From a virus (taxonomy: Monodnaviria > Loebvirae > Hofneiviricota > Faserviricetes > Tubulavirales): a DNA stretch of 4,423 bases. The position numbers and the translations under genes were made by a program. The notes beneath the pieces were generated by a model. That model had not been told where the DNA came from. It saw only the letters and a program-made list of their open reading frames with translations, and did no database searches. Below, piece after piece: positions 187 through 2,187 of the stretch. The stretch lies in IMG/VR virus record IMGVR_UViG_2693429642_000019; one strand, given 5' to 3'. Every line of letters begins with the position of its first letter. Position 1 is the stretch's first letter.

Positions 187-2187
187 GTGACTGAATCAGC
201 CATCCTTACAGCGTATAACGCCATCGACGCGGCATCCGTTGCCCTTGGTCGTCCCTGCCTGACGCTGCCCGAACGCGAGCATTTTCGGACTGAGCGCGAT
301 GTTGCCACCCGCAACCTTGCCACGCTTTCCCGCCAGTATCGTGATGAGGTCGGGACCTTATCTTCACAGCTCGCATTGCCACGTAACACGCAGGTTGACC
401 GTGTGATTTACGGAATTAACTGCACGGATTTATCTCTCGCTGACAGGGGCAGGGCTGCCGGACTGGTATCACAGTTTGGCTCGTTTTCGTTCACCGTGGC
501 GCATGCTTTCTGCCGTCTGGTTTACCAGCTCGGTGTGAAAAATGCGCTGATGGCGCTTGAGTCCGCGCACCGTTTTGCTTTCTTCAATCAGGACGGAGAC
601 CCTTATGAATTCTCGCTTTTCTGCACTGATGAGCAGATTGCTGAGGTGGCTGATTCGGTTGTTCGTGACTGCCTTGTTTCCCGGGCCATTTATAGTGATG
701 TACCAGAGCATCACCTTCTCAATGTGATGGCCTATTTTCGGGCCATCTCCGGCTTTGATTTCGCACCCGTTTATGCCACTTATCATGAGCGTTACGGCGA
801 TGAGGGATTGCTTAAGCGTCTGACTGATTTGGCTTTTGTCACCCGTTTCCTGCGGGTTGTCCGTGACCAGCGGGTTAATGAGGTCTGTCGCATGCTCGGC
901 ATACTGAACCGCAACGCGCCTTATATTTCTGACTGGCATCGTGACCTGTTTGCTGTCCGCAGTAAACGCGTGAAAAAGTATCTCCGGTCCTCCGGTGTCT
1001 TTGATGCGTTTAATGAGCTGGTCTGTACGCTGGAAGATGCGCATAACGCCTCTGTTTCGAATCCGAAAAACCGGATTGCTGAACTCTGCGTTCGTGGAAA
1101 GGCCGTCTGTGAACTGTCCGAAGATATGGGGCTGTCCGGCTACTTCATCGTGCTCACCACGCCGTCACGTTTTCACCCGACGACCAGTTTTAAGGTTGCC
1201 GGAAAATGGCATTCTCGTCCGAATAAAAAATGGTGGGAAGCAGGTTGCCCGACCGTTAAGGATTCGCACGCCTGGCTGAATACCGTCTGGCGTCGGGTCT
1301 GCCGCAGACTGGATAAAGCCGGTATTCAGATACCCGGTCTGCGCACGGTCGAGCCTCATGCTGACGGTACAACGCACTGGAATTTCCTGATTTACTGCAA
1401 TCCCCATGAGAGCGCAACGGTGCTCGCTATTTTCCGTGAAGAGGCCATGCGCGATGAGCCGGATGAAAAGGGGGCGAAAGAGCACCGCATTCGTATTGAG
1501 GCTATTGACCCTGAAAAGGGTGATGGTTTCCGTTACATCGTGAAGTACATCACCAAAATGGCGGGTGATGTCAGTGCGGATGGTATTACCGCCCTGAATG
1601 ACCGTTATTCTGCCCGTTCATTCTGTGATGCCGTCAGCCGTGCCGCCTGCTGGCAGAAAGCAACGCGCCTTCGCCTGTTCCAGTTCTTTGGCGTTCCGTC
1701 CGTCACGGCTTACCGCCAGATGCGTACTTTTCGTTCACCGCTTGAAGCACATCATATCAATATGCAGCAGTTCACGCCGCAGCAGGTCGCCGAACTGGAG
1801 GCCATCCGCATGGCCTGTGATGCAGGCGATTTCCGGACCTATATCCTGCTGAACGGCGGTTTCTTCTGTTCTGAACGTCTGCTTCGTCCTTTTTACGTTC
1901 AGCCGCAGGAAGGTGGTAAACCCCGTTTTAACCGTTACGGTGAACCCTGCGCACCGGTGATTTCCGGTTTCATGTTTGGCCCTGTTCCGGTCATAACCCG
2001 TTTTATGGGCTGTGTTGTCCGCCGTATGACCCCCGCAGAAAAAATCCGCGCAGAGGAAGTCAGAAGCGGCAGCAGCTATGAATCTGTGTTTATTTCGTCG
2101 GCTTCACGACACCGCACGACGCGCTCCCGCGCGGCGGGTGGGGGCGGCGAAGCCGACCCTTGGACTTGTGACAATAACTGTCCCTGA
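187..2187 (+). CDS. Rolling-circle replication initiator (Rep, gII-equivalent), two-tyrosine HUH-superfamily type; start uncertain (GTG 187 preferred, TTG 175 or TTG 88 possible)
   Basis: Long uninterrupted ORF in the frame of 88..2187. Encodes R-Y-I-V-K-Y-I-T-K at 1531-1557, with two Tyr three residues apart as in the phiX174 gpA / P2 gpA class of initiators. A His-containing segment [19 protein letters not shown] lies at 1354-1410, about 55 aa upstream. G-rich Shine-Dalgarno GGGGGGA (176-182) precedes GTG 187. The region 88-170 holds repeats and a promoter-like element, so the TTG 88 start is unlikely. First gene of an Ff-like gene order. Confidence 0.8.

Follow-up and report, generated by a model that had tools for sequence, protein, structure and literature searches.

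A probable gpA-family rolling-circle initiator with a predicted origin in its own 3' end in a filamentous prophage of Escherichia coli

The rep locus

The stretch of DNA analysed here (4,423 nucleotides in full, hereafter the window) comes from the IMG/VR virus record IMGVR_UViG_2693429642_000019, which belongs to the Tubulavirales, and the subject of the analysis is the gene at positions 187-2187, here called rep, together with its product, Rep, which we read as the replication initiator of a filamentous prophage. The window is 99.5% identical to a segment of the chromosome of Escherichia coli strain 100416 (NZ_CM128593.1), and no nucleotide match to it was found in the phage collection. The limits of the gene are given by two features.

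187-2187, plus strand: rep coding sequence, 666 amino acids (aa), start codon GTG at 187 and stop codon TGA at 2185-2187; limits identical to those of the RefSeq coding sequence WP_032269437.1
176-181, plus strand: GGGGGG run resembling a Shine-Dalgarno sequence, 5 nt before GTG 187

The N-termini of homologues align with the start at GTG 187. The longest mechanical open reading frame (ORF) for rep begins at TTG 88 and gives 699 aa, and the two lengths agree with the 670-700 aa estimated in a first-pass annotation that was made from the sequence letters alone. Other ORFs in and around rep (469-1044, 1165-1485 and 69-389 on the minus strand, 995-1279 and 1598-1852 on the plus strand) gave no family matches and were taken as mechanical.

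Family identity of Rep

The first-pass annotation had proposed a replication module of the gpA class within an inovirus backbone, and the profile search bore this out. Rep matched the Pfam family PF05840 (Phage_GPA) with 166.8 bits against a cutoff of 31.4 (E = 8.2e-49), so the tyrosine motif on which the proposal was built is not a chance occurrence, and coat, Zot and secretin genes lie in the same backbone. The match covers residues 207-457 and profile positions 73-316 of 321. With the whole Rep protein, PHROG 91 ("nicking at origin of replication") was matched at E = 1.2e-128, and a BLASTP comparison with P2 gpA gave 28% identity between residues 153-558 of Rep and 152-547 of gpA, collinear throughout (E = 1e-36). 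The same Pfam family was matched by phiX174 gpA (6e-62), P2 gpA (2e-124), orf698 of the Vibrio phage VFJ (5e-109) and a 709-aa "RstA-like" protein of the pre-CTX phage KP972569.1 (7e-87). The prototype of PF05840 is phiX174 protein A (PMC5714925).

ORF 187-2187 is therefore read, with a probability of about 85%, as a Phage_GPA-family, HUH-type two-tyrosine rolling-circle initiator of the P2 gpA subfamily, belonging to a filamentous prophage and carrying the origin in its own 3' end. Rep is an uncharacterised further member of a known family, and RefSeq already names the protein "replication endonuclease". Given that name, and given that the Vibrio inoviruses VFJ and pre-CTX KP972569 have PF05840 proteins, a gpA-type initiator in an inovirus is not new.

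The genome position of rep is that of gene II or rstA, and an initiator of the Phage_CRI type (M13 gpII) or the Rep_trans type (CTXphi RstA) might be expected there. Rep_trans initiators also carry a YxxK/YxxKY motif III (PMC13107129), so the tyrosine motif alone is not diagnostic of the family and the profile match decides. Whereas PF05840 was matched at E = 8e-49, both Phage_CRI (PF05144) and Rep_trans (PF02486) were absent from the Pfam results even at E ≤ 0.1. The structural neighbours of the Rep model included HUH-type nucleases (all Foldseek matches against the PDB being weaker than E = 0.1), and no Rep_trans structure was among its fold matches. An initiator of either of these types is exceedingly improbable. 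The "RstA-like" match had prompted consideration of CTXphi RstA as a relative, which was rejected given that classical RstA is a Rep_trans protein (PMC5714925, PMC13107129).

Catalytic motifs and the HUN variant

Three rolling-circle replication (RCR) motifs were found in Rep. Conservation was scored in the columns of two alignments of diverse homologues, with 37 sequences (including P2 gpA and VFJ orf698) and 44 sequences, respectively.

1144-1176, plus strand: RCR motif 1, F320-I-V-L-T324-T-P326-S327-R-F-H330; T324, P326, S327 and H330 invariant in both alignments
1351-1383, plus strand: RCR motif 2, the metal site, E389-P-H391-A-D393-G-T-T-H397-W-N399 (gag cct cat gct gac ggt aca acg cac tgg aat); E389, P390, D393 and H397 invariant and H391 at least 90% conserved in both alignments
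1531-1557, plus strand: RCR motif 3, R449-Y450-I-V-K-Y454-I-T-K457 (cgt tac atc gtg aag tac atc acc aaa), with the two tyrosines; Y450, Y454 and K457 invariant in the 37-44 homologues

The motif R-Y-I-V-K-Y-I-T-K at 1531-1557, for which the first-pass annotation had noted the Y-x-x-K-Y spacing, is read in the frame of ORF 187-2187 as R449-K457, and the histidine segment that it had placed about 55 aa upstream is motif 2, 53-59 residues before Y450. The alignment with the phiX174 and P2 proteins that it had recommended put Y450 and Y454 of Rep in the same profile and alignment columns as Y450/Y454 of P2 gpA and Y343/Y347 of phiX174 gpA. The tyrosine pairs of the P2 and phiX proteins are catalytic and experimentally defined. 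When the family alignment was compared by hhalign with the single phiX gpA sequence, one segment was obtained, comprising only the tyrosine motif (Y450 = Y343, E = 0.059); the shared Pfam model is better evidence for the relation to phiX than this segment.

The canonical HUH motif has two histidines around a bulky hydrophobic residue, and Rep departs from it: the first histidine is invariant and the second is replaced by asparagine (H397-W-N399). This is a variant of the HUH motif and not its absence, and E389, H391 and D393 remain candidate ligands. P2 and most relatives have EPHHDGTPHWH, whereas all relatives with at least 40% identity to Rep have EPH-x-DG-x-x-HWN. The HWN form is fixed from 40% to 99% identity in Escherichia, Salmonella, Providencia, Morganella and Xenorhabdus (homologues P0002-P0035 and loci L005-L009), and more distant relatives all keep H-W-H. 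The second histidine of the EPHH of P2 has also been lost in the enterobacterial clade and is A392 in Rep.

With both N399 and A392 in place of histidines, it could be argued that the HUN form impairs catalysis and that rep is a decaying prophage gene or codes for a DNA-binding regulator. However, the asparagine is fixed in every clade member over the whole identity range and in all five genera, the other catalytic residues are all invariant, and the rep gene, which was present in 48 of 5,426 complete E. coli genomes (about 1%), had an intact ORF in 40 of the 48 carriers, often in several copies. The cluster of 99% identical sequences, P0001, has 2,063 members, and its longest contig, at 8,731 nt, is about one genome unit. 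Loss of function is thus highly improbable, and the HUN form is read from these comparisons as a functional metal-site variant and not as decay, because a diverse clade, whose prophages are intact and multi-copy, has it without exception.

Domain architecture

The first-pass annotation had found no assignable motif in the first 400 or so residues and had suggested an N-terminal region of unknown role. The former statement does not hold: motif 1 lies at residues 320-330, and family similarity begins at residue 123 (PHROG 91), 153 (BLASTP to P2 gpA) or 207 (Pfam). The latter stands in part, since there is a real N-terminal region with no Pfam match to residues 1-210, but it comprises about 120-200 residues and not 400. 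The structure prediction that had been suggested for it, an AlphaFold2 model of Rep built on the 44-sequence alignment (mean predicted local distance difference test score, pLDDT, 88.7; predicted template modelling score 0.86), showed four parts: an all-helical part (1-268, with pLDDT >90 for residues 1-122), an alpha/beta core (269-460), a folded C-terminal domain (about 479-626) and a disordered tail (630-666). Together with the alignments this gives the following division of the gene.

187-552, plus strand: clade-specific helical N-terminal region, residues 1-122; helices predicted with pLDDT >90 and no family or fold assigned
553-990, plus strand: helical region common to the gpA family, residues 123-268; R211 invariant, Y246 and L266 nearly so
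991-1566, plus strand: alpha/beta HUH-type catalytic core, residues 269-460, carrying the three motifs
1567-2073, plus strand: folded C-terminal domain, residues 461-629, conserved in the gpA family (W489, R510, G558, G594 and others); pLDDT mostly >85
2074-2184, plus strand: predicted disordered tail, residues 630-666; pLDDT <50, variable except for the last 8 codons

Pfam scans with the N-terminal 210 and the C-terminal 207 residues alone gave nothing credible. A phmmer search with residues 1-205 found 13 representatives among 1.84 billion, and the credible matches were all initiators, complete or in fragments, from the same enterobacterial clade. Two proteins of about 2,860 aa with tandem repeats of about 70 residues (P0095 and P0103) were rejected as N-terminal homologues, the similarity being a short chance one that is repeated: P0095 reached E = 1e-49 over 31 stretches, all against Rep residues 4-64, and both proteins have a signal peptide and look eukaryote-like. 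They are a caution on phmmer E-values for repeat proteins.

The N-terminal region is the fastest-diverging folded part of the protein, with 41-46% identity compared with 69-86% in the HUH core. The first 130-150 or so residues of P2 gpA are likewise its own and unrelated to those of Rep, and variability of the N-terminal module is general in the gpA family. The product A* of phiX174 is an N-terminally truncated product of gene A. By analogy with phiX A versus A*, the N-terminal 120-200 residues of Rep might form a specificity module, for recognition of the double-stranded origin or its hairpin or for recruitment of a host helicase.

A 25-nt nick box at the 3' end of rep

The last 8 codons of rep coincide with a conserved DNA sequence.

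2159-2183, plus strand: predicted (+)-strand origin nick box, CTTGGACTTGTGACAATAACTGTCC; nick predicted next to G2162; sole copy in the window

The box encodes the C-terminal PWTCDNNCP of Rep. In the P2 GenBank record a "nick site at ori" is annotated inside gene A with the nick coordinate 2906 (L002:2906), within CTCGGAGTCCTGTCAATAACTGTGG / GCGCCTCGGAGTCCTGTCAATAACTGTGG, and at the sequence level the window box matches this P2 site (L002:2903-2927), where the P2 DNA encodes PRSPVNNC. From the P2 coordinate and by analogy with phiX174, the nick is predicted next to G2162.

The occurrence of the box was examined in 80 genomic loci of family members which, with the window, made up 81 sources, allowing at most 6 mismatches to CTTGGACTTGTGTCAATAACTGTAC. 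Of the 81, 77 had it, in each case on the rep strand; the opposite strand gave no match. Inoviruses with a Zot gene downstream account for at least 8 of the box loci, and in the annotated phage collection the box occurred in about 166 records, from P2-like phages and Vibrio filamentous phages, under or beside genes annotated as "replication protein A / nicking at origin". Conservation was confined to a sharp 25-nt block with unconserved flanks.

The position of the box relative to the reading frame was scored for the 74 boxes within 1 kb of the rep stop codon (73 loci and the window). Boxes inside rep were in frame 1 in 34 cases (giving the PWTxxNNC peptide) and in frame 0 in 9 (LGLVSITVP), 17 overlapped the rep stop in frame 2 (LDLCQ*, the stop codon being part of the box) and 4 overlapped it in frame 0, and the remaining 10 were located 4-198 nt downstream of the stop. 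Such shifts are seen within the clade of the window itself: the box is in frame 1 in E. coli, in frame 2 with the stop inside the box in Salmonella, and in an intergenic spacer about 190 nt downstream of rep in Xenorhabdus. Among E. coli relatives, residues 630-658 of the tail are 8-33% identical and residues 659-666 are 88-100% identical.

The peptide P-W-T/S-x-x-N-N-C recurs in many family members, P2 with its PRSPVNNC among them, and it could thus be supposed that PWTCDNNCP is a functional peptide, such as a host-factor or metal-binding tail, with conservation of the DNA as a by-product. This is very unlikely. In 40 of the 74 cases the same DNA is read in frame 0 or frame 2 or lies untranslated past the stop, the Salmonella and Xenorhabdus members of the clade have kept the DNA and lost the peptide, and in the AlphaFold2 model the peptide lies in the disordered tail. 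As the box is independent of frame and the peptide belongs to an otherwise variable, disordered tail, the comparison indicates that selection acts on the DNA of the box and not on the peptide. The box is probably the cognate nick site and (+)-strand origin of Rep. No paper on the box outside P2 was found in the literature searched, which did not cover older P2 work, and a search with nick-box sequence strings returned unrelated primers only. The HUN substitution and the frame-independent nick box are modest extensions of the known family.

A hairpin beside the box

2141-2159, plus strand: GC-rich stem-loop GGGGGCGGCGAAGCCGACC(C), adjoining the nick box at its 5' end; DNA fold of 2120-2200 with z = -2.3

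In most cases a GC-rich hairpin, whose sequence is specific to the lineage, adjoins the box on the 5' side. Just upstream of the 77 box sites, hairpins of differing sequence had a mean minimum free energy of -6.1, compared with -2.9 in a control window 200 nt further upstream and -1.8 downstream.

It may tentatively be suggested, at odds clearly below even, that the 25-nt box and rep make up a portable rep-ori cassette which is used in any frame across tailed P2-like and filamentous phages, in which the HUH core would read the box and the N-terminal domain the hairpin, with an H..H-x-N site in the enterobacterial form. If so, the division between box and hairpin would give each replicon its own specificity, and the C-terminal peptide of gpA would be a translation shadow of the origin.

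The region upstream of rep

81-160, between rep and the divergent 62-aa ORF: operator-like array of six overlapping TGCA-N4-TGCA palindromes (TGCACAATTGCA and variants)

The palindromes have an 8-nt phase and form two clusters, 81-116 and 141-160 (repeats D1, I1, I2, I8 and I12). In the 22-kb prophage locus (L001) the pattern TGCA-N4-TGCA had 14 matches compared with 3.5 expected, and 12 of the 14 were located in the two regions upstream of rep. The divergent 62-aa ORF had no Pfam match, and scanning for promoters upstream of rep gave no sigma-70-like site. The array resembles a set of operators for a small repressor, and control of the rep promoter is presumably exerted here.

Inoviruses of the Ff type have intergenic origins, and the dense repeats at 81-160 raise the possibility that Rep is a gpA-family initiator whose origin is intergenic, for example in this region, with the box serving in cis as something else (for instance minus-strand origin, packaging signal or terminator); the link between box and nicking in inoviruses comes from sequence and not from experiment. 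We consider this unlikely given that the box is the sequence annotated as the P2 nick site and is always found on the rep strand beside rep, in tailed P2-like phages and inoviruses alike. Tailed and filamentous viruses would not have a packaging signal or a minus-strand origin in common, and the TGCA repeats, lying between divergent genes, are operator-like.

Proposed mechanism

Several points weigh against the reading of Rep as a gpA-family initiator with its origin in the box. The NCBIfam scan of Rep gave no match, a sequence search of PDB chains gave none at E ≤ 1, and every Foldseek match in the PDB was weaker than E = 0.1. With asparagine in place of the second histidine of HUH, the metal site is not the canonical one. 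Rep as the nicking enzyme and the box as its site are identified by sequence-level comparison, the exact nick position is carried over from the single-coordinate P2 GenBank annotation, and the role suggested for the N-terminal region is drawn from analogy alone. The hairpin signal is modest (mean z -1.0) and was obtained from related, non-independent sequences.

If Rep acts as a gpA-family initiator, replication might proceed in five steps. (1) Rep would be expressed from the operator-rich upstream region. (2) It would bind the double-stranded replicative form at the origin in its own 3' end, consisting of the hairpin (2141-2159) and the box (2159-2183); this site is suggested by the identity with the P2 nick site and the frame-independent conservation. 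(3) A metal ion would polarise the scissile phosphate, its ligands being H391, H397 and probably N399, E389 or D393, and Y450 or Y454 would attack next to G2162 and become 5'-linked to the (+) strand, leaving a 3'-OH for the host polymerase and a superfamily 1 (SF1) helicase. (4) After one round the second tyrosine would cut the regenerated box, and the displaced strand would be sealed into a circle. Steps 3 and 4 follow the analogy with phiX174 gpA (as summarised in PMC5714925) and P2 gpA. (5) The prophage has one box per genome unit, and as tandem prophage copies place the boxes 8,739 nt apart, replication started by a nick at one box and ended at the next could free unit-length single-stranded DNA (ssDNA) without excision. 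For CTXphi, ssDNA is produced from tandem prophages without excision (PMC4439123).

Prophage and genome context

In E. coli 100416 (NZ_CM128593.1) the window corresponds to part of an 8.7-kb filamentous prophage beside hipBA. At least two copies of it stand head to tail directly behind hipBA, and the repeating unit is 8,739 nt (the 22-kb locus covered runs from 2408923 to 2431267). Its genes are, in order, the divergent 62-aa ORF, the 666-aa "replication endonuclease" (WP_032269437.1), a 141-aa protein, two small membrane proteins, an 80-aa major-coat-like protein, a gpIII-like protein, a protein in the position of gpVI, a Zot-domain protein and a GspD secretin. The window itself has a PHROG major coat match and a Pfam Phage_Coat_A (gpIII) domain. 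The backbone is that of an inovirus, and the order rep, gene in the ssDNA-binding position, coats, gpIII-like, gpVI-like, Zot and secretin fits this. Although the prophage adjoins hipBA, no canonical E. coli dif site was found at up to 3 mismatches in the 22-kb prophage locus.

The GC content is 0.51-0.56 in rep (187-2187) compared with 0.40-0.48 in the small structural genes downstream (2250-3000), which is consistent with a replication module of other ancestry than the morphogenesis module. Three further features lie downstream of rep.

2218-2643: 141-aa ORF in the position of gene V (ssDNA-binding protein); matches PHROG 30648 (unknown function) end to end
3234-3251: strong hairpin resembling a terminator, AGCGCCC-TCCG-GGGCGCT plus a T run, just past the end of the major-coat-like gene (2976-3218)
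3946-4216: tandem repeat in the gpIII-like gene, 78 nt (x3.5) or 39 nt (x6.9), with 95% matches at the 78-nt period

The Pfam match of the 141-aa ORF to "Putative_G5P" was below threshold (E = 0.08). A position after the major coat gene is the usual place of an attenuating terminator in filamentous phages. The tandem repeat encodes a Gly/Ser linker in the same gpIII-like protein that has the Phage_Coat_A domain, and alignments with E. coli relatives often break at it (the query ending at 3952 or 3965 in several), which suggests variation in repeat copy number.

Significance

These results place the replication module of an uncharacterised filamentous prophage, which about 1% of complete E. coli genomes carry, in an enzyme family that is well studied. 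The origin is predicted to the nucleotide, and direct tests thereby become possible for replication, for the production of ssDNA by tandem prophages and for vector construction. A conserved "peptide motif" of the gpA family appears to be better explained as an embedded cis-acting DNA site, which matters for annotation, recoding and truncation of these genes. Inovirus initiators come from at least three unrelated or distant families, namely Phage_CRI, Rep_trans and Phage_GPA.

Comparison with known systems

The closest parallel among the well-studied initiators is P2 gpA (AAD03306.1, 761 aa; Peduoviridae), which has the same Pfam family, is collinear with Rep over about 400 residues at the 28% identity given above, shares motifs 1-3 and has catalytic tyrosines that even bear the same numbers, Y450 and Y454. 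The same nick box is likewise embedded in the gene of its own initiator. The two differ in that P2 is a tailed double-stranded DNA phage with the canonical EPHHDGTPHWH where Rep has the HWN form, and in that P2 gpA has about 140 extra C-terminal residues past the box, whereas in Rep the box makes up the last 8 codons.

The phiX174 protein (NP_040703.1, 513 aa; Microviridae) belongs to the same Pfam family and has the same tyrosine spacing (Y343-VAK-Y347-VNK), but its motif 2 context is GRLHFHAVHF and its direct similarity to Rep is weak. The phiX174 origin, CAACTTG^ATATTAATAAC (L004 4299-4316), also lies inside gene A and has CTTG at the cut and AATAAC in common with the box. In the P2-type box, CTTGGACTTGTGxCAATAAC (window 2159-2178), these two elements are 10 nt apart, compared with 5 nt in phiX174.

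Among filamentous phages, VFJ orf698 (similar to fs2 orf716) and the 709-aa protein of pre-CTX KP972569.1 show the same combination of an inovirus backbone and, where gene II would lie, a PF05840 initiator about 700 aa long. VFJ orf698 is 29.7% identical to Rep over residues 43-606, and no relation between the N-terminal 120 residues of Rep and those of the Vibrio initiators was detected by phmmer. The box is found at the 3' end of rep, overlapping the stop codon, in VFJ (L003:2079-2103), and 2 nt after the rep stop in pre-CTX KP972569.1, where it is of the P2 type (L085:3161-3185; rep to box 1030-3185). Unlike Rep, the Vibrio initiators keep the canonical second histidine (HNH or HWH), and their box is in another frame or position. 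Phages named pre-CTX or CTX carry initiators of two unrelated families (PF05840 and Rep_trans, respectively).

The gpII proteins of the Ff phages (M13, f1 and fd; PF05144) have the same role and genome position as Rep and also nick at a specific site, without sequence relation to it. They are about 410 aa long, and the Ff origin is intergenic. Phage_CRI is thought to be related to Rep_trans and not to HUH (PMC5714925). CTXphi RstA (Rep_trans, PF02486) is, like Rep, the initiator of an integrative filamentous prophage, and tandem prophages of CTXphi can give ssDNA, but RstA belongs to another fold family (PMC5714925, PMC13107129) and its family had no match here. Finally, YpfPhi of Yersinia pestis and CUS-1 of E. 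coli K1 have a similar module order and tandem integration as described in the literature (PMC4266046). In these phages a divergent small regulator precedes the genes for replication, morphogenesis and secretion, and no phage was produced once the replication gene YPO2274 of YpfPhi had been disrupted (PMC4266046).

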